Source: Dehalococcoidia bacterium (GTDB taxonomy: Bacteria; Chloroflexota; Dehalococcoidia; SM23-28-2). Taken from it: DNA of 64,000 nt. The notes beneath the pieces were generated by a model. The model had not been told where the DNA came from. It was given only the letters and a program-made list of their open reading frames with translations, and searched no databases. Positions 33,591 through 64,000 of this stretch are shown here, one piece after another. The stretch lies in assembly GCA_020356025.1 (NCBI GenBank), contig CP070630.1:2040443-2104442 (forward strand). The letters are read 5' to 3'. Position 1 is the first letter of the stretch, and every line of letters begins with the position of its first letter. The translations under genes and the position numbers were made by a program.

Positions 33591-34343
33591 CTAGGCTACT
33601 GCCTCGCCGGCAATCCACTCGTAGCCCTTGGCCTCCAGCTCCTGAGCCAGTTCCATGCCGCCCGAGCGGACGATGCGGCCGTCGAAGAGGACGTGCACGA
33701 AATGAGGGTCGACGTAGTTCAGTATACGCTGGTAGTGGGTGATCAGCAGCATCCCCATGTGAGGCCCGGCCAGCTTATTGATGCCGTTGGCCACCGACCG
33801 CAGGGCGTCGATGTCCAGGCCTGAGTCGGCCTCGTCCAGGACGGCCATCTCGGGCTCCAGCATGGCCAGCTGAAGGATTTCGTTTCGCTTCTTCTCGCCG
33901 CCCGAGAAGCCCTCATTGACGTAGCGCTCGGAGAAGGAGCGGTTCATCTCCAGCAGGGCCATCTTCTCGAAGAGCTGCTTGCGGAACTCGGTGACGGAGG
34001 GCTCCTCACCCTTGCTGGCCTTCAGGGCCATGCGCAGGAAGTGGCGCACCTTCACCCCTGGGATCTCCACAGGGTACTGGAAGGCCAGGAACATCCCCTG
34101 ACGGGCCCGCTCGTCGGGCGGAAGCGAAAGGACATCCTTGCCCTTCAGCAGCACCCGCCCCTGAGTTATCTGAAACCGGGGGTGGCCCATGAGGGTGTGA
34201 GCCAGGGTGCTCTTGCCGGAGCCGTTGGGCCCCATGAGGGCATGCACCTCCCCCCGCTCAACGGTCAGGTTCACCCCTTTGAGGATCTCCTTGCCCTCTA
34301 CGCTTACGTGGAGGTCTTCGATGACGAACAGTGGTTTAGGCAT
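33591..34343 (-). CDS. sufC: Fe-S assembly ATPase SufC
   Basis: [31 protein letters not shown]. Confidence 0.96.
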
Positions 34344-34469
34344 CTCTCCAAGGGAATATCAGAACATTTTACTGTGTAAAGCTGCCAGGGCGTATTCTAT
34401 CATAGCCACCTTCTTCTTTCAACCGTTTTGCGTGGCCTTTGGCCAAAATGCGGGCATGGTCCTTGTTCC

Positions 34470-34498
34470 TTGACAGCCAGCTAGGCCCGTGCTACTTT
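34470..34498 (+). promoter_or_regulatory. Sigma70-type promoter upstream of iscS
   Basis: TTGACA-N17-TACTTT with extended TG. Confidence 0.55.
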
Positions 34499-34582
34499 GA
34501 CGATGCTGGACCGCCCCGATATGCTTGTCTCCCGCTAGGCAGGTCGGGGCGGCGTCCGATCCTAAGGCATTTGTGCGGCACC

Positions 34583-35821
34583 ATGGCCGAGCGCATTTAC
34601 CTCGATCACGCTGCCACCACCCCTCTAGACTCGCCCGTCCTGGAGGCGATGCTCCCCTATCTTACTCGCTACTGGGGTAATCCTTCCAGCCTGTACACCG
34701 AGGCACAGGAGGCCCGCAAGGGCCTGGATGCTGCCCGCCGGTCGGTAGCCGAGCTGCTGGGCTGCAAGCCCCAGGAGGTCATCTTCACCAGCGGCGGCAG
34801 CGAGAGCAACAGCCTGGTCATCCGTGGTGCTGCCTACGCCAGCCGTCGCGCCCTGCCGGCCGGTAGGCGGAGCCGCCACATTGTCACCTCCGCCATCGAG
34901 CACCACGCCGTCCTCCACACAGTGCAGCAACTGGAGAAGGAAGGCTTTCGGGTCACCTACTTGCCCGTGGATCGTCATGGCTTCATCGACCTGCCCGCTC
35001 TGGAGGCGGCGGTGACCGCCGAGACGATCCTGGTGAGCATCATGTACGCCAACAACGAGGTGGGTAGCGTGGAGCCCATCGCCCGGGCGGCGGGGATCAT
35101 CAAGGAGAAGAACCGCCATACCGTCTTCCACACCGACGCCGTGCAGGCGGTGGGCACCCTTGACATCAACGTCGATCGCCTGGGGGTAGACATGCTGACC
35201 ATCGCTGGCCACAAGATCTACGGGCCTAAAGGGGTGGGCGCCCTCTACGTGCGCAGTCGCACGCCCTTCCAGCCTCAGATACTGGGAGGCTCCCAGGAAC
35301 GTAACCGCCGGGCAGGCACCGAGAACGTGGCTGGCGCTGTGGGCCTGGCCAAGGCTATGGAGCTGGCCTGCAGCGAGTTCGACAGCCGCAACGCCCACTA
35401 TCGCTCCCTGCGCGACCGCCTGATGAGCGAACTGCCGGCCCGCATACCCCATACCCACATCACCGGGCCGTTGGACCCCGGCCGGCGTCTGTCCAACAGC
35501 TTCAGTTGCTGCTTTCAGTTCGTGCAGGGAGAGGCGGTGCTCATGGCCCTGGACCTCCAGGGCATCGCTGCCTCCAGCGGCTCGGCCTGCACCTCCGGCT
35601 CGCTGGAGCCCTCCCACGTTCTGGTGGCCATGGGCCTATCGGAGGAGTTGGCGCGAGGCAGCCTGCGTCTTACCGTGGGCAAGGACAACACGATGGAAGA
35701 GATCGACCGCCTGCTGGAGGTGCTGCCGCCCATCGTCGCCAAGCTGCGGGACTTATCGCCCCTGTGGCGGCAGGCTGATGAAGCGGGTTCGGGCCCGAGC
35801 AGTCCCCCTGGTGGCAATTAA
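34583..35821 (+). CDS. iscS: Cysteine desulfurase, IscS/NifS group
   Basis: YLDHAATT, GNPSS, HTDAVQA, GHKIYGPKG, SSGSACTSG. Confidence 0.92.
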   Translation: MAERIYLDHAATTPLDSPVLEAMLPYLTRYWGNPSSLYTEAQEARKGLDAARRSVAELLGCKPQEVIFTSGGSESNSLVIRGAAYASRRALPAGRRSRHIVTSAIEHHAVLHTVQQLEKEGFRVTYLPVDRHGFIDLPALEAAVTAETILVSIMYANNEVGSVEPIARAAGIIKEKNRHTVFHTDAVQAVGTLDINVDRLGVDMLTIAGHKIYGPKGVGALYVRSRTPFQPQILGGSQERNRRAGTENVAGAVGLAKAMELACSEFDSRNAHYRSLRDRLMSELPARIPHTHITGPLDPGRRLSNSFSCCFQFVQGEAVLMALDLQGIAASSGSACTSGSLEPSHVLVAMGLSEELARGSLRLTVGKDNTMEEIDRLLEVLPPIVAKLRDLSPLWRQADEAGSGPSSPPGGN

Positions 35822-50526: not shown

Positions 50527-53292
50527 CTAGGGCTTGGGCATACGGTATCCGGCCTGCCGCTCGGTGAAGATAAATCGGGGGTGGTGGGCGTCATCACCCA
50601 ACTTACGGCGAAGATTGCGGATGAAGGAGCGCACGAGTTCGGTCTCGCCGCGGTACTCTTCTCCCCACACTTGCTGGAGAATCTGGTCATAGGTCAAGAC
50701 CCGCCCGGCATGGGTTGCCAGCTCGTACAGGATCTTGTACTCGGTGGCGGAGAGAGCGACCTGCTCGCTTGCCACGGTGACCCGCCGCTCTGCAAAGTTG
50801 ACTCTCAGATCACCCAGCACAAACGGCGGCCTCGCCTCCATCAGGTCGGGCAAGAGCCGCCGTCGCAGGGCTGCCCCAATACGAGCAAGCAACTCCGAGG
50901 GGGAGAAGGGCTTGGTAATGTAGTCGTCGGCCCCCATCCTCAGGGCGCGGACGGTGTCCTCCTCCCGATCGCTAGCAGTGAGAAAGATAACCGGCACCCC
51001 TGAGAACTCCCGGATGCGCCGGAGCAGGTCGAAGCCGCTGGTCCGGGGAAGCCTAAGGTCCAGCAGAACTAGGTCTGGCTCCTCCAACTCCATCAGTTTC
51101 GCGACCTCTGACGGGTTGCTGGTCACGATGGGCTGGTACCCCGCCTCGTCCAGGGAACGCTGGACATAGCGCAGCACCTGCGGCTCGTCATCGACGGCGA
51201 GCACGCGCGTCCTCTCACCTGCCCGCCGGACCCTCCCCAGGTGCACGGTCCTCCGAGTTTCGTCCGATAATGACTTGACACCGGTTTCGGCGGCTACCGG
51301 CAAGGTGAAACTGAAGGTGGAGCCTTGTCCCTCCCCAGGACTATCGGCCCGGATGCGCCCGCCCTGGGCCTCCACAATACCCTTGCAGATGGCCAATCCG
51401 AGGCCGGTGCCAGAAAGCTTTTGCCCGCCATCGTCGTGAACCTGCGAGAATTTCCTGAACAGAAGAGGCAGCTTCTCCCTGGGGATTCCGCGGCCCCGGT
51501 CTCGGACATGGATTGTGACCTGCAAGGGGTCGTGCTCCGCTGCTATGGTGATGGGCGCTGTTGCCGGAGAGAATCTGGCCGCGTTGTTGAGGAGGTTCGT
51601 CAGCACCTGAACGACCCTGTGCCGGTCTGCGTTGACAGCGGGGAGGTCGTCGGGTACCTCCAACTCGACCTGGTGACGGCCGCCGCTTCGCGCAAAAGTT
51701 GCCCGGGCTTCCTTGAGAACGTCCCGCAGATCGGTAGGTTCAGCGCCGATCGACAGGGAGCCAGCCTCGATGCGCGTCATGTCCAGGAGGTTGTCCACCA
51801 GGTCCCTAAGGCGGTCTGCTTGCTCGTCAATGATCTGAAAGAGTTCTCTATTCTCCTCGGGACTGAAGGGCCTCTGGCTGCCCAACGCCGTCGCTGCAGA
51901 CCCCTTGATTGCTGTGAGCGGTGTCTTCAGCTCGTGGGTGACCATGCCCAGGAATTCGCTACGGAGCTTCTCCAACTCCTCCTGGGCCCGCTTTCGCTCG
52001 GTGATGTCCAGGGTGTATTCGATCACCTGCCTGACATTTCCTTCGTGATCGAGAACCGGGTGGCAGTGGACTTCCACAGCGCGGTCATTGCCATCGGTAT
52101 CGCGGTGGATATGCTCGACCGTGACGGGCGCCTTAGTCTGCTTGACCACTTCGAGGGGGCAGACGTGTTCGTCGCCTTTACACGGCTCGGTCAGTCCATG
52201 GGTGAGCGCGTAACAGGTTGCGGCTTCCCGCAATCCGCCCCGACAAGCGGCTGCATTGGCCATCTTGATGGTATAGTCTTCGGCCTCTATCACATAGAAC
52301 GGGTGGCGAAGGGCGTCCAGGACGGCCTGAAGGAAGGCGCTATGCTCCCGGATTCTCTCCTGCGCCCGCCCGCGCTCGGTGACACGGCCCAGTCTCTCGG
52401 CAATGGCGTTGATCAGGTTTCGCTCTTCCTTTAGGAAGGGCCCCTCATCGCTCTTGGGCCTCTCCTCGAGATAGCAGACCTCCACAATGCCAAGCCGCTG
52501 CCCAAGCACGATGATGTCGGCTGTCTGCCTCCAGTTGCTTTCTCTGAAGTTTCCTGTCCTGAACTCTTGATCCTCCAGCATGATGCGGGCGCACGTCACT
52601 TCGGGGTACTGCCAGGCTGGGGGAATCAGTTCGACTGTCCCCTGGAGGAACTGTTCCAGCGAAAAATCGGCCCGCTCAACGAGACGGGAGATACCGTAGA
52701 GGCAGTTCAGTTCCTTGACGCGCTCGCTAAGATGGTGGGTCCGTTCGCTCAGCGCTTGCTCTGTCCGCGTCTTCTCTGTCACGTCGACGAGGGAGAGCAC
52801 AAGCCCTTGCATGGCCCCGGAGGCATCCGTGACGGGCGAAAGCGTCCAGTCCCAGTAAGTTACGCCGCGTTCTGGCTGGTCCGCGTATACGAAGGGCTTG
52901 GCGGTGTACTGGACCGCTTCCCCCGTGTCCCTCACCTTCTCGAATATGGCCCGGTTCTCGGGATCGGGGAACAAGGCGAAGTGATTCGTCCCGATGAGCT
53001 CTTCGGCCGTGTGGCCTGAACCTTTGGCGTAAGCAGAGCTGACCTTGATGAAGTTGAAATCAGTGTCTAGGTAGGCGATCTGTGCACTTGTGGTCTCCAT
53101 GATGACATCCAGCATGTCTCTCTCACGCTGGACGCTTGCGGCAAGCTGCTCCGTGTGGCTCTGCTCTCGACGCCGCCTAGCGAGGCGCGCGTCGTGACTC
53201 TCCCCGTGGCGCTGGGCCACTGTGTTCGGAGCCTTCTTTCGCTTCTTGTTCTTCACCATCACGTCCCGCTGACTGCAACTCGGGATAACCAT
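50527..53292 (-). CDS. Hybrid sensor-regulator: PAS, GAF-like, PAS, HisKA/HATPase, receiver, OmpR-type wHTH
   Basis: VTHELKTPL, NLLNNA, DRGRGI, GTGLGL, AVDDE, LLDL, YITKPF, KdpE-like C-terminus RKLGDD...TERQAGYRM; start 53292 or 53259. Confidence 0.9.
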   Translation of the reverse strand: MVIPSCSQRDVMVKNKKRKKAPNTVAQRHGESHDARLARRRREQSHTEQLAASVQRERDMLDVIMETTSAQIAYLDTDFNFIKVSSAYAKGSGHTAEELIGTNHFALFPDPENRAIFEKVRDTGEAVQYTAKPFVYADQPERGVTYWDWTLSPVTDASGAMQGLVLSLVDVTEKTRTEQALSERTHHLSERVKELNCLYGISRLVERADFSLEQFLQGTVELIPPAWQYPEVTCARIMLEDQEFRTGNFRESNWRQTADIIVLGQRLGIVEVCYLEERPKSDEGPFLKEERNLINAIAERLGRVTERGRAQERIREHSAFLQAVLDALRHPFYVIEAEDYTIKMANAAACRGGLREAATCYALTHGLTEPCKGDEHVCPLEVVKQTKAPVTVEHIHRDTDGNDRAVEVHCHPVLDHEGNVRQVIEYTLDITERKRAQEELEKLRSEFLGMVTHELKTPLTAIKGSAATALGSQRPFSPEENRELFQIIDEQADRLRDLVDNLLDMTRIEAGSLSIGAEPTDLRDVLKEARATFARSGGRHQVELEVPDDLPAVNADRHRVVQVLTNLLNNAARFSPATAPITIAAEHDPLQVTIHVRDRGRGIPREKLPLLFRKFSQVHDDGGQKLSGTGLGLAICKGIVEAQGGRIRADSPGEGQGSTFSFTLPVAAETGVKSLSDETRRTVHLGRVRRAGERTRVLAVDDEPQVLRYVQRSLDEAGYQPIVTSNPSEVAKLMELEEPDLVLLDLRLPRTSGFDLLRRIREFSGVPVIFLTASDREEDTVRALRMGADDYITKPFSPSELLARIGAALRRRLLPDLMEARPPFVLGDLRVNFAERRVTVASEQVALSATEYKILYELATHAGRVLTYDQILQQVWGEEYRGETELVRSFIRNLRRKLGDDAHHPRFIFTERQAGYRMPKP

Positions 53293-53306
53293 GGTTCTTA
53301 TTGTCG

Positions 53307-53315
53307 AGTATACCA
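53307..53315 (-). promoter_or_regulatory. Extended -10 promoter (TGgTATACT) for the hybrid kinase
   Basis: Overlaps the ORF-track start, so the true start is downstream. Confidence 0.45.
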
Positions 53316-53531
53316 CTAGCGAGGTAACGCTAGATACCGCCCGTCGTCAGCAGCTTTCGCGATCTGTACGAGCAGCCCTTAGTGGCCATTTCAAGGCTTG
53401 CTCTCGCTGCCCAGACGAAGGTCGGGTATCACCCGCGCGAAAGGACCGGTGAGCGCCCCAAGAGCGTTCAGCGGCACGAGTCGAGGTGCAGGCCAGGAGC
53501 GGAGAGACCTGGGAGCTGAGCCGCAAAAGGA

Positions 53532-53591: not shown

Positions 53592-55553
53592 CTATGGCGC
53601 AACCGTGTACGGCCGCATCATCTCGTTGTCCTCGTGGTCGAGGATGTGGCAGTGCCAGACGTAGCCCGGGCCGGCCGTCGGGTCAAAGGGGAACGTGTTG
53701 ACTCCGGCACTCACGTTGTTGACCGGGACATCTTGCGGCGCCCACCGCACGACGATGCGGGTGACCTCGCCGGGGTACATGATGACGGTGTCCTTCCAGC
53801 CCGTTTCGTTGGCTGCCGGCGGCGCGGCCTTCCCCTGCAGGAAAGCACCTATGGCCGGGTTGCCGCCAACGGCGCCATCGGCGTTGGGGGTGTCATACGG
53901 CAGCGGGGGTCCAGCAGCAGGGTTGTAGACACCTCCGGCGAACGCCGCATCGTAGGCCTTCAGATACTTGCTCGCCTGGAATCCCTGGCGGCTGAGGACC
54001 TGGAACTGCACCAGGTGCAGGTGGATGGGGTGGGCGTCGCCCGTCAGGTTGATGACCTCCCACACCTCGGTCGAGCCGACCCGCGGCATCTCCGTTATCC
54101 CCGGCGCAGGAAGGCCCGACATGGTGCCGTCCCACTTGGTGTTGTTGAGCAGCGCCTCCAAGGGACCACCGGCACCCATGACCTCGTTGAGGGTCAATTG
54201 TCTGACTTGATCTGGCAGGATGGTGGTCACGGCCGGATCTAGGCCGACGATGGGGTTAGCGGGCCGCAGGCTGCCCGGGAGAGCGATCGCGGGGTTGTAG
54301 CTGGTGTCCGGGCCGCCTGTAGGGAAGCCCACCCGGAACTGCATTATCTGTCCGACCGTCTGTGGATCTGGCGTTGCCCCTTGCGGGAAGGGCGCCCGCG
54401 CGTTGTTAGTCATGATGAGCTTGGTTCCCGGCTTCACTTTCGCGAAGTCGACGATAACGTCAGCGCGCTCACCCGGCGCGAGGAGGAGCTTGTTGACCTC
54501 CACCGGCGTGTCGAGCAATCCGCCGTCGGTCCCGATCTGCCAGAAGGTCAGCCCTCTCGGCAGATTCAGTTCATAGAAGCGGGCGTTCGAGCCGTTCAAG
54601 AGGCGGAAGCGGTAGCGGCGCGGCTCCACATCCAGGTACGGCCAGGTCTTGCCGTTGACCACGATGGTGTCGCCCAGGAACTCCGGCTGCCAGAAGGGGT
54701 GCTCCGGGTTGAGAGCCGGCGCGTCCGGGAAGAGCCACTGACCGTTGGTATCGAACATGCGGTCCTGGATGACGATCTCCGCCTCTTGCTGTCCGCTGGG
54801 CAGGTTGGCAGGCTCATTCAGTGGATCCCTCAGCAAGTAGAAGCCCGCCAGGCCACCGTAGACGTTTAGTCGCGTGACGCCCAGAGCGTGGTCGTGGTAC
54901 CAGAGCGTGGCGGCTTCCTGGGTGTTGGGATAGGTGTATGTGTTCGTCACAAACCCGGGGCCTGTCTGCGCGAATCCGGGGGTGAACCACGAATCCGGGT
55001 GACCATCGAAGGCCGAAGGGACCTCCCCGCCGTGCAAATGGGTGACCGCGGGCACGGGGCCAGCGTAGGGGTCTACAAGGGGATCGCCCACTGGGCCGAT
55101 AGGATCGGCCCAGTGAAGGGTCTGGTCCACCGTGAGGTATTGCTGGAGCACGGGGTTCACCAAGTTGTTGAAGTAGGTGATCGTCGTGGGCACGCCGCGC
55201 TGCGCCTCAATCGTGTAGGCGGGATATAGAGGGCCGAAGGGAGTCGGGTTCCCGGCCTCGGTTATCTGGTAGCCCCAGACATATGTGCCCGCGTTATATG
55301 GAGCAGGCAAACCAGCGTAAGATGCCGCGGGAAGGACTTGCTGCTGGAACTCCTCCATTGTCACAGTTAGTGGCACGGTCCCATCGACCCTGTTGCCAGC
55401 AAACGTGGGCAGCGGATCCACGTATTTCGGGATGGCCCCCCCGGGAAGAGGAACCTGCGGAACCTGAACAGATGCGCCCGCCGTTGACCCGATGAACAGC
55501 ACCGTGAACAGCACAGCCACGGCTGCTGCGACTAGTAGAGCGCTCTTCTTCAT
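53592..55553 (-). CDS. Multicopper oxidase, CotA/bilirubin-oxidase-like, secreted
   Basis: HLHG, WYHDH, HPIHLH, WHCHILDHEDNEM; signal peptide. Confidence 0.95.
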   Translation of the reverse strand: MKKSALLVAAAVAVLFTVLFIGSTAGASVQVPQVPLPGGAIPKYVDPLPTFAGNRVDGTVPLTVTMEEFQQQVLPAASYAGLPAPYNAGTYVWGYQITEAGNPTPFGPLYPAYTIEAQRGVPTTITYFNNLVNPVLQQYLTVDQTLHWADPIGPVGDPLVDPYAGPVPAVTHLHGGEVPSAFDGHPDSWFTPGFAQTGPGFVTNTYTYPNTQEAATLWYHDHALGVTRLNVYGGLAGFYLLRDPLNEPANLPSGQQEAEIVIQDRMFDTNGQWLFPDAPALNPEHPFWQPEFLGDTIVVNGKTWPYLDVEPRRYRFRLLNGSNARFYELNLPRGLTFWQIGTDGGLLDTPVEVNKLLLAPGERADVIVDFAKVKPGTKLIMTNNARAPFPQGATPDPQTVGQIMQFRVGFPTGGPDTSYNPAIALPGSLRPANPIVGLDPAVTTILPDQVRQLTLNEVMGAGGPLEALLNNTKWDGTMSGLPAPGITEMPRVGSTEVWEVINLTGDAHPIHLHLVQFQVLSRQGFQASKYLKAYDAAFAGGVYNPAAGPPLPYDTPNADGAVGGNPAIGAFLQGKAAPPAANETGWKDTVIMYPGEVTRIVVRWAPQDVPVNNVSAGVNTFPFDPTAGPGYVWHCHILDHEDNEMMRPYTVAP

Positions 55554-56138: not shown

Positions 56139-59100
56139 TCAGCGGATAAGATTAAACGTCCAGGTGGCTCCTTCCTCCTTGGTCACTAGCGCAAGTACAG
56201 ACGTTAGGTGAGCCAGATCGCTAATGGTGGTGATGTCAGGGCGGCCAAGGGCGTAGCGGTGCCACAACTGGTCGCTGCCCAGAGCGTAAAGGATGTTGAG
56301 TTCGGTGCTTATGGTAGCGGAGGCCTCGTCTACTGGCTCGGTCAAGCCCACGTAGCACACGCTATTCCAGCCCATCACTAGATCGGCGCTGGTGGGGGAC
56401 ATGGCGGATACATCCTGAACCCAGGAGGCGTCGCCGGCCATGAGAACGAAAAAAGACTCGAATGGGTTGACCGTGGTGATCGTGCTGACTTCGGGCCTGT
56501 CGGCGAACCAGCGGTCGTAGCCGCCGTCGTCCCGGAGGCGGTAGACGGCCAGCACTTGGCTCACGATGGGCTCCAAAGCCGCGTCGATACCCTGCTGTGA
56601 TCCGGCGTAGCAGGCATGGTTCCAGCCAGCCGCCAGACTCAGGGCACCTACGACATCGACGATATCGTGACCACGGAAGGGCGTGCCGTCCTGAAGGCTC
56701 CCGACGATTGTCGCCGTCACCAGGTTGGGAGAGGTGGGCAGGGCGGAGATGAAGCTCGGCCCGTCGAAGGTCAGCTCTAGGTCGGCAAGTCCGTCTTCGT
56801 CGAAGTCGCCAACGGTGGCCTGGGTCGGCGATAGGGTTGCCTCTCCCACCAGAAGGTCGAGGCTATCGGTATCTACCTCATTGACATCGTGCCCGAAGGG
56901 CAGCTCGGTATAGGCGGTGACCGTTGACGGCGGCTCGGGACTGGCCAGGTTGAGCGCATCGGGCTTCACATCTACAAGTGTGGTAATGCCTACGAAGATG
57001 CGAACGCTGGCCGAGCCCTGCTGCCCGTCGGAGTCAGTGACCTTCAGGGTGATGGTGTGCCACCCAGGCGATAGATCGGCTACCAGTCCCGCCGGGCCGT
57101 CAGCGATTTGGCCGTCCCGATCCGAAGACCAAATGTAGGCTTCCGACGGCAGGCCTCCGTCCTCCTTGTCTGCCGCTGACCCCATCAGCGTCACCGCGTC
57201 CCCTATCTGATACTCAGAGTTATCTTCAGGCGAGAAGATGGTGGGCACGGGTGGCTTGGTGGCGACTTGGAAGTGGCCGCTGTCGCCCGTGCTTGAGTTG
57301 CCGGTGTTGTCGGTGGCGATGACCCGGTAGAAGGCATCGTTGCCGCCGGGCAGGTCATCTACGTTGGCCTGATAGGTGGTCTCGGAGATGTTGGCCACGA
57401 TGGGGAAGAAATTGGCGCCGCCATCCCAGCTGTAGAGAAGGGTGAAGAGAAGAGGATCGCCGTCGGGGTCCTCGGCCTGCCACTGCACGGTCTGGTTGCC
57501 GCTGAGGAGGCCGCCATCGGCAGGCGCGGTGACCTCGACGGTGGGCGCGTTGGCGCTAACGTCCACCGAGTCCAAGACCTCCGTGCCGTGACGCAGGACG
57601 ATGCGGTCGGTTCCCTCCACCCAGGCCAGAACGACGCTGAAGGGGGATGGCTCGGGCATAGTCGGCACCTCGAGCAATTCGAAGTTCACGTCGAAGCAGT
57701 GGCTGCCGACAACAGTTCCTTCGTCCTCCAGTTCGACGCAGTACTCCCCTTCGCCAATCGGATCAGGAGTACCGTCCATTACGCGGTACAAGGTGGAGAT
57801 GTTTCCCGTAGCGTCGGGATTGACTACCCCGGCTACGAAGACCGACTCTACGCCATTCACAGCGACAGTGATGCTCTCAGCCGAACCCCCGGCGATGGAG
57901 CCGATAGCGACAGCATTGCCCTGCCAGCAGGACTTGGCAGTAGCGCTGTTGGGCGAAAGAGCGCAGAACAGCTGCTGGTAGGTATAGGGACTGACCCAAC
58001 GCACGTCGTTGGCGTTGGTCTGCACGGTGAAGCCGCAGTGGCCACCCTGCATCATCTCCGTCTGAGTTGAAGGATGAGCGACAGCCGATGGGAGAGGAAT
58101 CGGGAAAATCCCCGCCACCAGTATGGTAAGGTCTGTCTCTATGCCCGTCTCCTGGATATCATAGTCAAGGCCGACCGCACCAGCGCCGGTGTAAGGCCAG
58201 TCCGGGTCGTCCGCGAAGCCTCCGGTGCAGGGGTGGCGACGGCCTAGGTTGTGGCCGATCTCGTGGGTCATGACCATCGACCGGTTGCCGGCAACGGTCC
58301 AGCCCACGTCCACGATACTCGCTATTCCCTTCCCTCCGTTCCAGATCGGGTTGGAGACGCCGTTGTTGAAGCCGGTGGCGCCAGGCACGAACACCACAAC
58401 CTGGTCAGGGGGGCTAACATACCCGAAAGTGTAGAGGAGATTGGCTTCCGCTATGACATCCGGCCAGCTGAAGCTCTTTTTCCAGTCAAACAATGATCCT
58501 ATTTCATAGACAACGGGGTCCCAGTGGGACACAGGAAAAGTCCTCACCAGCCAGAATACTTGGTTCTTCACGTCGGCGGTGGAGACTGAGCCGCCACCGC
58601 CGCCGGGGGGATCGTAGTTCATTCTCGCGGCATAGATATGGGGTGACTCGCGCTCGTACACCTTAAGGTCAAGGGTGCCGCTGGCCGGGGCGACGTTATT
58701 GGTGTCATCTTGCTCAACAAGGGTGTCATCGGGGTTCACCTCGGCCTGGAAGCTGAGCACATCGTCGGCCGCGCATTCCTTGCAGAGAAGCACGAAGTTG
58801 GCGCTGCTGTTGATGTTGTCCCTTATGAGGGCTTGCGTGGCCGTGGTCGTGCCGTTCATGGTCAGCCACGAAGTGCCATTGCGGGAAACCTTGAGGCGGA
58901 CGGGCACGTTCTGGATGGCGGCCGACGTGCCGGAGGCCACATAGACGCGCACCCAGGTGAACCTGCCCGCCACCAGCGGGAGTTGGTTGTCGGCGCAGGC
59001 GGTGTCGCCGGTTGTGTTGTCCAGGCACTGCTGGGCTTGAGTGACCTCTATGGCAGCAATGGTGTAGTCAGGGGTTGGCGCGATGGACTCGGTCGGAGGC

Positions 59101-59696
59101 GGAGCGAACATAGGGTTCGCTGCTTTGGGGAAGCCGGGCCCGACAATGGCTATCTTGGGCGTGGGCGTTGGCGTTGGCGCCGGCACGGGGGTGGGGGTAG
59201 GGGTAGGGGTAAGCGTCGGCTCTGGGACGCCGAAAGCGGCTGTCTTGTAGTACCAGGTCTCGTCCAGGGAGTACCACCAGCAGACGGTCACCGTATGGTC
59301 ACCGGGCTCGGCATGCTCCGGCACCATGGCGTCTATGCGTCCCGCGCTCTCGTACTCGGGCACGGCACCACTGCCGATGAGCGTGCCTCCCGAGGCGGGG
59401 TCCCAGTCCCAGAGTGCCTCCGCTGGCTGGTCATCGTAGTCGTTCGGCTCGATACTGGACAGCTCGACTTGAAGCGATGAGCCGGGAGGGCCTACCTCCG
59501 GGATGAGGGTGACGACGGCTTCCGGCAACGGTTGCAGGAAGCCGTAGGCGCCGCATTGCACCTCTCCTAGAGCTTGAGCTGGTGGGTCGGCCAGGCGTTG
59601 AGGGATGGAGGTCAAGGCGAGAGCCAAGACAAGGGCCATGCCTGTCATTGCCAAGATGGCAAGAGCGTGACGGGAACCGAGTCTCCACACTTTCAT
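56139..59696 (-). CDS. Large secreted multidomain zinc metalloprotease (metzincin-type)
   Basis: Signal peptide, TP linker, HEIGHNLGRRH, Ig-like domains, GDFDEDG Ca motif, tandem C-terminal repeat. Confidence 0.8.
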   Translation of the reverse strand: MKVWRLGSRHALAILAMTGMALVLALALTSIPQRLADPPAQALGEVQCGAYGFLQPLPEAVVTLIPEVGPPGSSLQVELSSIEPNDYDDQPAEALWDWDPASGGTLIGSGAVPEYESAGRIDAMVPEHAEPGDHTVTVCWWYSLDETWYYKTAAFGVPEPTLTPTPTPTPVPAPTPTPTPKIAIVGPGFPKAANPMFAPPPTESIAPTPDYTIAAIEVTQAQQCLDNTTGDTACADNQLPLVAGRFTWVRVYVASGTSAAIQNVPVRLKVSRNGTSWLTMNGTTTATQALIRDNINSSANFVLLCKECAADDVLSFQAEVNPDDTLVEQDDTNNVAPASGTLDLKVYERESPHIYAARMNYDPPGGGGGSVSTADVKNQVFWLVRTFPVSHWDPVVYEIGSLFDWKKSFSWPDVIAEANLLYTFGYVSPPDQVVVFVPGATGFNNGVSNPIWNGGKGIASIVDVGWTVAGNRSMVMTHEIGHNLGRRHPCTGGFADDPDWPYTGAGAVGLDYDIQETGIETDLTILVAGIFPIPLPSAVAHPSTQTEMMQGGHCGFTVQTNANDVRWVSPYTYQQLFCALSPNSATAKSCWQGNAVAIGSIAGGSAESITVAVNGVESVFVAGVVNPDATGNISTLYRVMDGTPDPIGEGEYCVELEDEGTVVGSHCFDVNFELLEVPTMPEPSPFSVVLAWVEGTDRIVLRHGTEVLDSVDVSANAPTVEVTAPADGGLLSGNQTVQWQAEDPDGDPLLFTLLYSWDGGANFFPIVANISETTYQANVDDLPGGNDAFYRVIATDNTGNSSTGDSGHFQVATKPPVPTIFSPEDNSEYQIGDAVTLMGSAADKEDGGLPSEAYIWSSDRDGQIADGPAGLVADLSPGWHTITLKVTDSDGQQGSASVRIFVGITTLVDVKPDALNLASPEPPSTVTAYTELPFGHDVNEVDTDSLDLLVGEATLSPTQATVGDFDEDGLADLELTFDGPSFISALPTSPNLVTATIVGSLQDGTPFRGHDIVDVVGALSLAAGWNHACYAGSQQGIDAALEPIVSQVLAVYRLRDDGGYDRWFADRPEVSTITTVNPFESFFVLMAGDASWVQDVSAMSPTSADLVMGWNSVCYVGLTEPVDEASATISTELNILYALGSDQLWHRYALGRPDITTISDLAHLTSVLALVTKEEGATWTFNLIR

Positions 59697-61382: not shown

Positions 61383-63374
61383 TCACTGCGATCGGTATAT
61401 CACTCCAACTCCGCCCAAGTGGACCTCGCTGCCGTCGTAAAGGGGGCGACGCTGTCCCTTCCGTAGGGTGTAGTCGTCCACTACGATATCAGTCGCCGAA
61501 ACCGCCTCCAGGAGGCACTCCCCGTTCCTGCGCGGAATGATGCGGGCCGATCGCCCGGCAAGGCCCAGATCCATGTCGTCATGCGGGCCCCCCAAGGTTA
61601 GTGGCCGCCGCCACCAAGTGCGACAGTGCCGCCCTTCGAGATCGTAGGCTCGTCCCTCTGGCACCGACGTCAAGTAACCGCGCAGAGTGGGGCGTCCGAA
61701 GTGGGCATAACCTGCCCAGGACACGGTCAACGCGGCCAGGAGCGCGGGACCCAGGATCAAAACCAGCGTGGGGCCCCCACCGCCGTTCCCGCCGGCCGTC
61801 GGGACCGCGACGGGCACCGGAGTGGGCGGTGGCCCCGCAGAGGGCGAAGGTGCGTCGACCTGCGCCGCCGATAACGACGTCTCAAAGCTGCGACGGGCTA
61901 CCACTCCTTCCTCCGTCTCTGCCACCAAGGCGATGCTGTACCTCCCCTCTACTCCGCTCACCGCAACCGTCCCGACGTACTCCCCCGATCCCACCGGTTG
62001 AAGGGCCCCTTCATTGGACCGCCCATCCGGCTCGGTGACTGTAACAGCCACCGTAGCATCCTCCACCGGCCTCTCCTCCTCCGTCTGGGGGTCGCGAGCG
62101 GTGAGCCGGACGGCAACTTCCAGCGGTGCACCAGACCCTAGATTCAGCAAGGGCGGCGGGCGCAGCCAGACCACCTCCAGCAGCGTCCGCGGCGTCGACG
62201 AGATAGTCAGGCAGGACTCGCCTTCAGTCGGTCCCGCTATCGTCACCGTCCAAGTTCCCCTCGGTGGCTCCTCAATGCTGAAGGCGTCGTAGCGAGCGTC
62301 GGTTCCCGCGGGGGCAACCGGCTCACCACCGGGGTCAGCCACCATCACCGCCGGCCGTAGGTCACTGGGGTAGGTCACGAACAGTGAGAGCGTGGAAACG
62401 AACGAGTGGACGGGAAAGGTCACAGATCTCTCCTCGCCGGGAGCCAGGCAATCGCTGAACAGGACTTCGAACACGTCCAGCTTCTTAGCGGCGAAAATCT
62501 CCTGGAACACCAGCGTCAGTTCGCTGGCCTCTGGCGCCTCGCGGTACAGCCCGCCACCGTTCTCTGCCAGCTTCTGCAGAAACTCCGACTCCACGGCGCT
62601 GGCCAGGGAAACCGGAAAGAGGCCCCACTTCCTCTCTCCGAAGCTGGCCGCCAGGGCAAGCACCGCGTTCCGCTCTGCTTCCTGCTTCTGGGCCGAAAAG
62701 TTGGGCCAGTCAGGCGGGTGGAGCTCCCCATCCGTCAGGAATATGGCGAAGCGGATGGAGTTGGAGCCCTTCTCTAGCTCCTCCAGCCCCGTCTCCAGAC
62801 CGGTCCGCATGTTTGTGTTGCCCGCTGGGGCCAGTGGCCTCAGCCGCACCTTTATGGACTCCTTAGTCGTCACGTCCGTCACCCTCGTCAGCGGCACCAG
62901 CACGATACTGTCGTCGGCGAACAGAACCACGCTCATCTCGTCCCCGTCCTCCAGTAGGTCCACCAGCTGGCTGGCCGCCGCAAAGCGCAGGCTGGCGGGG
63001 TCGGTCTGGGCCATGCTCCCTGAATTGTCGATCACGAGAACGACGGCGTTGTGCGGCGGCCCTTGGGCGCCCGCCGGCAGGATGGATAACGAAGCAAGAG
63101 CGATTAACGCAGGAAGGGAGAGGGAGAGCGCACGAAACATCAGCCGTAGCGCCTTGATCGCCCTAGGGTTAGATCTTGCGGGTCCCGGTGGCGTTGTCCT
63201 CTCTCTCAAACGGATGTTGCCCACTTGTCCACCTGGGCGTAGTTGTGCATAGTGCGCTCTTGGGCCTCGGGAAGACCTTGCTCTATCGCTCGGGTAAGGG
63301 CTAGCAGTCCTGGAACAAGCACCACTGCCAGCAGTAACAGAACGAGCTTGGCTATCATGCTGCGCATGATTCAC
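61383..63374 (-). CDS. vWA-domain membrane protein with a C-terminal FHA-like domain
   Basis: MIDAS DNSGS, T, LTDG; signal-like segment from Met 63140 (alternative start); Pro linker, TM helix, FHA-like tail. Confidence 0.75.
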   Translation of the reverse strand: MNHAQHDSQARSVTAGSGACSRTASPYPSDRARSSRGPRAHYAQLRPGGQVGNIRLRERTTPPGPARSNPRAIKALRLMFRALSLSLPALIALASLSILPAGAQGPPHNAVVLVIDNSGSMAQTDPASLRFAAASQLVDLLEDGDEMSVVLFADDSIVLVPLTRVTDVTTKESIKVRLRPLAPAGNTNMRTGLETGLEELEKGSNSIRFAIFLTDGELHPPDWPNFSAQKQEAERNAVLALAASFGERKWGLFPVSLASAVESEFLQKLAENGGGLYREAPEASELTLVFQEIFAAKKLDVFEVLFSDCLAPGEERSVTFPVHSFVSTLSLFVTYPSDLRPAVMVADPGGEPVAPAGTDARYDAFSIEEPPRGTWTVTIAGPTEGESCLTISSTPRTLLEVVWLRPPPLLNLGSGAPLEVAVRLTARDPQTEEERPVEDATVAVTVTEPDGRSNEGALQPVGSGEYVGTVAVSGVEGRYSIALVAETEEGVVARRSFETSLSAAQVDAPSPSAGPPPTPVPVAVPTAGGNGGGGPTLVLILGPALLAALTVSWAGYAHFGRPTLRGYLTSVPEGRAYDLEGRHCRTWWRRPLTLGGPHDDMDLGLAGRSARIIPRRNGECLLEAVSATDIVVDDYTLRKGQRRPLYDGSEVHLGGVGVIYRSQ

Positions 63375-63518: not shown

Positions 63519-64000
63519 CTAGGGGACGATGGCCATGCTGCAGCTCACGGGCGCCGTGACCAGGATGAGGAAGGCGTCGTACCCGTCCAGCGGCCCCATG
63601 TTGGAGATCTCTGGCCGGTCGGGGAAGTAGCGCTCCCAGCCCCCACCTACCAGCCGATAGGCAGCAGCGTAGCTGCCCTCCGCGCAGTCGAACACGTCCT
63701 CAGGCGGCATGCCGTCGGCACCTGTCCACCCCTCGTTCTGCCAGCCCACGCTCCAGTCCAGCGTGCGTTCGGTGCCCGCCGCATCGGCCACCTCCATCTG
63801 GCAGGTGACCTCCTCGGTGTTAAGGATGAGGAAGGCTTCATACTGTTCCAGGTCTGCCATGTTGGAGAGGTCTGGCCGGTCCGGGAAGTGGCGCTCCCAG
63901 CCTCCGCCCACCAAGCGATAGGCGGCGGCGTAGCTGCCGTCGGCGCAAGCGAACGCCTCCTCAGGGGTGGAGGCGCCGCTCCAGGTCTCGTTGTGCCAGC
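63519..64000 (-). CDS. C-terminal part of a probable surface protein with two ~70-aa repeats (5' end beyond the window)
   Basis: Frame is open to the edge; two YAAAYRLVGGGWERxFPDRP units with a 261-bp period. Confidence 0.75.
   Translation of the reverse strand, partial: WHNETWSGASTPEEAFACADGSYAAAYRLVGGGWERHFPDRPDLSNMADLEQYEAFLILNTEEVTCQMEVADAAGTERTLDWSVGWQNEGWTGADGMPPEDVFDCAEGSYAAAYRLVGGGWERYFPDRPEISNMGPLDGYDAFLILVTAPVSCSMAIVP

Follow-up and report, generated by a model that had tools for sequence, protein, structure and literature searches.

The window, i.e., the whole 64,000-nucleotide stretch analyzed here, corresponds to C1:2040443-2104442 of a single-contig, 2.175-Mb Dehalococcoidia assembly with 63% GC, and its minus strand encodes two proteins with signal sequences that end in homologous tandem repeats. 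The first is a secreted zinc metalloprotease of 1185 aa (ORF 56139..59696, minus strand), with a signal sequence at aa 1-42 (59571-59696, minus strand), the zinc motif HEIGHNLGRRH at aa 478-488 (58233-58265, minus strand) and PKD/Big-like domains at about aa 718-902; the Pfam matches to Reprolysin, PKD and Big_7 are all weak. The repeat pair follows these domains, with HMM envelopes placing unit 1 at 56406..56648 (minus strand; aa 1017-1097) and unit 2 at 56145..56393 (minus strand; aa 1102-1184). An earlier note on this DNA, made from the sequence alone, had bounded the pair at 56139-56630; the start is correct, but the pair extends about 18 nt past the end given there. The second protein is encoded by an ORF that is open-ended in the window (63519-64000, minus strand) and runs on to the window-equivalent of ~65354 (genome C1:2105796). 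In the genome, the complete protein (C1:2103964-2105796) has 611 aa, in which a signal sequence is followed by a parallel beta-helix and, after a Pro/Thr linker, by two units, of which the C-terminal unit 2 lies at 63525..63767 (minus strand), and unit 1, at about 63786..64000 (also given to 63998; minus strand), is cut by the end of the window.

The homology of the two tails, as claimed in the note, is borne out by BLASTP of tail against tail (E=1e-11). Moreover, an HMM built from the two units of the edge protein alone scores 36.1 bits on unit 1 of the protease and 19.0 bits on unit 2, against a maximum of 8.5 bits in a shuffle control (1873 scored shuffles). The assumption that the remainder of the two proteins is unrelated also stands: the N-terminal 440 aa of the edge protein align to the protease with a best BLASTP E=0.81, in an alignment that falls in the Pro/Thr linker, and these 440 aa share 51% identity with a paralog that has a Pfam Beta_helix match.

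Read by eye from their translations, the neighbors of the protease are a 653-aa secreted multicopper-oxidase-like protein (53592-55553, minus strand), a 929-aa PAS/histidine-kinase/receiver/OmpR-type hybrid (50527-53316, minus strand) and a 663-aa membrane protein that contains a DxSxS motif of vWA-like type and has an FHA-like C-terminal end (61383-63374, minus strand). An Rfam scan of the window gave no match.

Conservation, subfamilies and predicted structure

The repeat is a real, undescribed, independently folding extracytoplasmic domain of ~75 residues. The consensus offered in the earlier note is roughly right when compared with conservation over 381 unique copies, across which W9 (100%), G16, A24, Y36 (98%), W44 and R46 are conserved together with the loop F-P-G-R-P-[DE]-x-S-x-[LIM]. 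The latter belongs to a long polar loop after strand 4, viz., R-[YW]-F-P-G-R-P-[DE]-x-S-x-[LIM], which is kept across subfamilies. The units are acidic, with a median pI of 4.1-4.3 and a net charge of -4 to -6.5, as are the carrier proteins as a whole.

A tree of units resolves four subfamilies, A-D, each of which is monophyletic or nearly so. Subfamily A comprises C-terminal pairs on beta-helix proteins, including both units of the edge protein, and subfamily B comprises C-terminal pairs with the motif GWNxVCYxG, including the metalloprotease, whose two units are of the first-unit and second-unit type, respectively. Subfamily C is N-terminal, sits right behind a conserved cleavage-like site, G-x-G-S-S-x-A, and has two invariant cysteines; subfamily D consists of single C-terminal units on NosD-like beta-helix proteins. 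The cysteine pattern of one subfamily combines an N-terminal cysteine with one at the end of the helix, and that of two others combines the helix-end cysteine with one in the C-terminal strand. Subfamilies B and C are homologous (hhalign 98.1%, E=1e-13), and by sequence comparison the subfamilies are one superfamily. Within subfamily B, first and second units fall into separate clades (support 0.96 each), which indicates that the pair spread as a two-unit cassette and not by recent local duplication.

As the note had stated, no name can be given to the domain: we found no Pfam, NCBIfam or PDB sequence match, with the best E in the PDB sequence profile search being 1.4. When 21 isolated pairs were scanned against Pfam at E<=1, only scattered sub-threshold matches emerged. 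The best recurrent one, DUF5926 (PF19348), was seen in 3 of the 21 pairs (best E=1.2e-5) and falls short of its gathering threshold of 27 bits; on whole carriers it scores 19.7-22.2 bits, each below 27, across ~36 of its 264 profile positions. DUF3564 reaches 27.3 bits in one carrier (P0001), a sum over four copies of which no single stretch is significant. These two, along with DUF1811, KH_SLS1_1 and PGG, were rejected as being inconsistent among members and below threshold. The public homologs for which a source name is available are all labeled 'hypothetical protein', except for one JGI label, 'cell division septation protein DedD', and we found no mention of the module in the literature on Dehalococcoidia surface proteins, sortase and the cell wall.

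AlphaFold2 models both the pair of the protease (pLDDT 96.8, pTM 0.89) and a single unit (pLDDT 96.8) with confidence. The predicted topology of the unit is strand-strand-helix-strand-strand-strand-strand, with a helix of 11 residues, and the pTM of the pair suggests that the two units are in fixed packing. Under a criterion of E<=0.001 or TM>=0.5, Foldseek searches of the PDB recovered nothing significant for the pair (best E=0.029, TM<=0.23) or the single unit (best E=0.39, TM<=0.45), and neither did a search of BFVD (best E=0.19). The module constitutes a new domain family, with a putative function of a kind already known, and, going by these models, possibly a new fold. Its interest lies partly in being a confidently predicted fold without a solved neighbor.

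Placement, passengers and distribution of the module

An HMM of the four units of the window, iterated against all six-frame ORFs of the genome, converged at 53 ORFs with 82 copies; at E<1e-8, the 2.18-Mb genome contains 80 copies of the domain in 51 ORFs. Some family members are truncated, as the assembly is an estimated 83% complete and includes 13.9 kb of N. A hydrophobic signal segment is present at the N-terminus of every one of the 39 intact ORFs, in line with the secreted character that the note had ascribed to the carriers. In contrast, the expectation that the domain might always be C-terminal and paired does not hold. C-terminal pairs (16 of the 39) and C-terminal singles (9) are accompanied by N-terminal singles (7), N-terminal pairs (3) and pairs located internally between two other domains (4). 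Thus, in 35 of the 39 the domain occupies the mature N-terminus or the extreme C-terminus, behind Pro/Thr linkers. The copy number per protein is 1, 2 or 4, and one module-only protein comprises a signal sequence and four modules, with nothing else.

The note had raised the possibility of an export tag analogous to a secretion CTD, and these placements bear on it, as well as on a sorting tag or a pro-domain that is cleaved off, comparable to the T9SS CTD or PPC. While the domain is indeed C-terminal on the secreted protease and on 25 of the 39 intact carriers, the secretion-CTD reading is ruled out by the N-terminal and internal copies, and the pairs and quadruple copies are also at odds with it. 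Further, the carriers already have Sec-type signal sequences, and there is no match to PPC or to any NCBIfam model of C-terminal sorting domains (T9SS CTD, PEP-CTERM, LPXTG and similar). We accordingly regard a tag or pro-domain of any such kind as highly improbable.

A Pfam scan of 20 carriers reveals a wide range of passengers: Beta_helix/NosD, PD40 propellers, a methyltransferase, DUF11/CARDB, TSP3, Beta-lactamase2 plus NHL, glycosidase-like domains, pectinacetylesterase, CAP plus DUF333, CarboxypepD_reg and Flg_new_2, in addition to the metalloprotease of the window. In metagenomic relatives, thermolysin, M60 peptidase and cohesin also occur as passengers. This range bears on an alternative in which the domain acts like a carbohydrate-binding module (CBM), binding an environmental polysaccharide or particle and thereby taking the enzyme to its substrate rather than to the cell. 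Many carriers are indeed beta-helix/NosD-like, glycosidase-like or pectinacetylesterase proteins; W9, Y36 and W44 would provide conserved aromatics; tandem copies with Pro/Thr linkers are typical of CBMs; and internal placements occur. However, the passengers are mostly not carbohydrate-active, and the protease, PD40 propeller, methyltransferase, beta-lactamase, CAP, cohesin and module-only carriers are without a polysaccharide substrate. Moreover, the conserved aromatics may just be the core of a 75-residue fold, and Foldseek finds no similarity to a solved CBM (best CBM entry 4lpl, E=0.55, TM 0.28). Hence, we consider substrate targeting of this type unlikely.

The note had inferred that the domain is restricted in lineage, and genome surveys agree: it is expanded in the GTDB family of the window, patchy across the class, and rare and weak beyond. 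All 13 genomes of that family have 11-82 copies. In the order, one other family has 20 weaker copies, and the remaining four families are without the domain. Across the class Dehalococcoidia, matches at E<=1e-5 are found in 97 of 401 genomes, mostly from a small number of families, and in a sample of the phylum Chloroflexota 13 genomes outside the class match weakly. The close relatives retrieved with the subfamily C alignment only (23 loci) come almost exclusively from MAGs labeled Dehalococcoidia, the exceptions being three from MAGs labeled Bathyarchaeia, Bacillota and Chloroflexia. A search of 1.84 billion cluster representatives (50% identity) gave 3065 matches at E<=1e-3, of which 984 reach E<=1e-10 and 231 reach E<=1e-30. 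Among the best 150 of the 3065, the domains are C-terminal in 92 and N-terminal in 49, and 94 of the 128 sequences in this set that start with Met have a hydrophobic N-terminus. Proteins made up of only a signal sequence and four modules recur among the public matches. With 3065 clusters in public data, the family is ready for a Pfam entry.

Two further observations concern the genomic setting of the copies. A cassette of three genes occurs in at least four copies (C1:20807-28266, 579115-584346, 917602-921414 and 1263049-1268621), and consists of a beta-helix protein of subfamily A, a ~455-aa protein with the ending SDRGDVALRGFEDPVRLFEV.WREE, the end of which we take to resemble a nucleotide cyclase, and a NosD-like protein of subfamily D. 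Several of these cassettes abut N runs; hence, the repeats probably broke the assembly. Separately, a few module-bearing frames have an in-frame TGA or TAG (e.g., C1:301459-301704), which could represent pseudogenes, sequencing errors or, for TGA, selenocysteine.

A candidate surface-retention role and known analogs

The signal sequences, the terminal placement behind linkers and the spread as a cassette argue for a module that localizes or docks its carriers, and against a catalytic or substrate-specific role. The diversity of passengers, the single conserved loop and the exclusion from proteins with a C-terminal anchor (see below) point the same way. More specifically, we see about an even chance that the domain holds its carriers at the cell surface non-covalently via one common envelope component; among the readings considered, anchoring, as put forward in the note, remains the best. 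It would thus be a portable module on secreted proteins of the Dehalococcoidia lineage, with a wall glycan, peptidoglycan or a surface receptor protein as the candidate common ligand. The loop R-[YW]-F-P-G-R-P-[DE]-x-S, polar and invariant, is the putative contact site, and its occurrence in all subfamilies suggests one ligand common to them. The two units are predicted to pack against each other into a compact pseudo-dimer that does the binding, and proteins with a single unit would form such pairs between molecules. We infer surface retention, a ligand shared by the carriers and a pseudo-dimer as the functional unit. Counting against anchoring are the acidity of the domain, the four proteins with an internal pair and the module-only proteins, which are odd for a pure anchor. 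Further, peptidoglycan is present in the sister families of the order that lack the domain, which indicates that the ligand is not simply generic peptidoglycan and would have to be lineage-specific.

The closest architectural parallels are found among modules that attach secreted proteins to cell envelopes. The SLH domain (PF00395) of monoderm and some diderm bacteria, which binds pyruvylated secondary cell-wall polymer (SCWP), is likewise a short tandem module that occurs at the N- or C-terminus of numerous unrelated secreted proteins, with its copies packed as one pseudo-symmetric unit, and it too features in cohesin-bearing 'anchoring scaffoldin' architectures. Indeed, some metagenomic relatives fuse cohesin to the module pair, and the arrangement of a cohesin that ends in the pair parallels the SLH-anchored scaffoldins. 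However, SLH has a helical fold and occurs in triplets forming a pseudo-trimer, whereas the present module is predicted to be a beta-sheet with one helix and is found in 1, 2 or 4 copies. No SLH match was found in 32 carriers or in the 21 isolated pairs, even at E<=1. CWB2 (PF04122) of Clostridioides difficile similarly marks dozens of paralogous surface proteins per genome and has alpha/beta units, but these are of ~90 aa in triplets against ~75 aa in pairs; there is no structural match, and no profile match on carriers or isolated pairs. The GW modules (PF13457) of Listeria InlB and Ami also have ~80-aa units starting with Gly-Trp, arranged in C-terminal tandem for non-covalent attachment. 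Yet they are all-beta, SH3-like and basic, and bind lipoteichoic acid, whereas our module has a helix and a pI of ~4.2; with no Pfam match and no SH3b structure among the Foldseek matches, the resemblance is superficial.

Two other comparisons extend beyond wall binding. Dockerin and cohesin (PF00404, PF00963) offer the precedent of a terminal docking module on many secreted enzymes, but the duplicated Ca-binding loop-helix motif of dockerin is absent in our module, and dockerin type I has no match on any carrier. True cohesin and dockerin domains exist separately in genomes of the same genus (G001, G004, G005, G007 and G009), making the module a distinct system. Neither was found in the own assembly (83% complete); as they are absent here and present in some congeners, the module is no replacement for them. 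PPC (PF04151) is a ~70-aa, often duplicated domain at the C-terminus of secreted metalloproteases, as in the window. In contrast to PPC, the module has a helix and is limited neither to proteases nor to the C-terminus (most carriers are not peptidases, and the domain is N-terminal in 10 of the 39), and the carriers and isolated pairs scanned gave no PPC profile match.

Members of the Dehalococcoidia abound in sediments, aquifers and the deep ocean, and nearly all of them remain uncultured; to our knowledge, next to nothing is known of their cell-surface organization. Since the module marks ~50 secreted proteins per genome, or ~2-3% of genes as estimated from genome size, it allows the surface proteome to be picked directly from sequence. 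It might also serve as an affinity handle to label or capture Dehalococcoidia cells in environmental samples.

The envelope and the sortase locus

The genome encodes four PBPs, a SEDS protein and one sortase, and therefore a peptidoglycan wall is to be expected as a possible target. SLH was not found in any of the 31 genomes searched from the order of the window, while control genomes did match. The genome also has 38 ORFs with a C-terminal hydrophobic segment followed by a basic tail, including candidate anchor signals, and the domain occurs in none of them. Accordingly, the domain and the C-terminal anchor look like alternative routes of retention.

The single sortase gene sits in a conserved locus (C1:1025718-1033637), which contains a module protein of 1300-1770 aa, two ~220-aa proteins, one or two sortases and a smaller module protein. 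The ~220-aa proteins (C1:1030211-1031599 in the own genome) have a C-terminal TM and an Arg-rich tail and are sortase-substrate-like; the smaller module protein is a CAP protein with a divergent module. In the own genome, the locus is preceded by an ECF sigma/anti-sigma pair. It recurs in another Dehalococcoidia family (L050 5169-15442) and, by coordinates, in two further genomes (G011, C1:2617232-2620708; G004, C22:8334-11111).

This locus is pertinent to a dockerin-like alternative, in which the module would not bind a wall glycan; instead, its units would attach to one another or to a dedicated protein receptor, giving rise to a multi-protein matrix or complex at the surface. The prediction of the pair as a tight pseudo-dimer (pTM 0.89) and the existence of single-unit and four-unit-only proteins are compatible with such cohesion, and the small sortase-substrate-like proteins of the conserved locus could be the receptor. 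On the other hand, only one of the ~50 domain genes is at the sortase locus, and this alternative overlaps with surface retention if the receptor is cell-bound. We view protein-protein cohesion as a doubtful explanation.

Returning to surface retention, a bolder form of it would have a new fold serve as the universal means of surface display throughout a large, uncultured clade of Dehalococcoidia, paired with a cell-bound receptor or a lineage-specific wall glycan. The candidate dedicated receptor would be the small sortase-anchored proteins, which adjoin a family member in a locus conserved across families. We think this improbable; if the new fold with its dedicated ligand were true, it would constitute a third independent solution to non-covalent display, beside SLH/SCWP and cohesin-dockerin.

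A different uncatalogued C-terminal signal was also observed in this genome: at least eight secreted proteins share P-x-VGGIAELP[DE]-x-SDS, a hydrophobic helix and WYARRRW (C1:180527-183481, 331107-331595, 552792-554450, 551036-553021, 495515-496129, 101967-102800, 103403-104743 and 34111-35697). The 75-aa module is in none of these proteins. The only NCBIfam match of the signal is GVDTG_CTERM, at 14-17.6 bits versus a cut-off of 29 bits, and VGGIAELP[DE]...WYARRRW may be a sortase- or exosortase-type signal that has not been described before.
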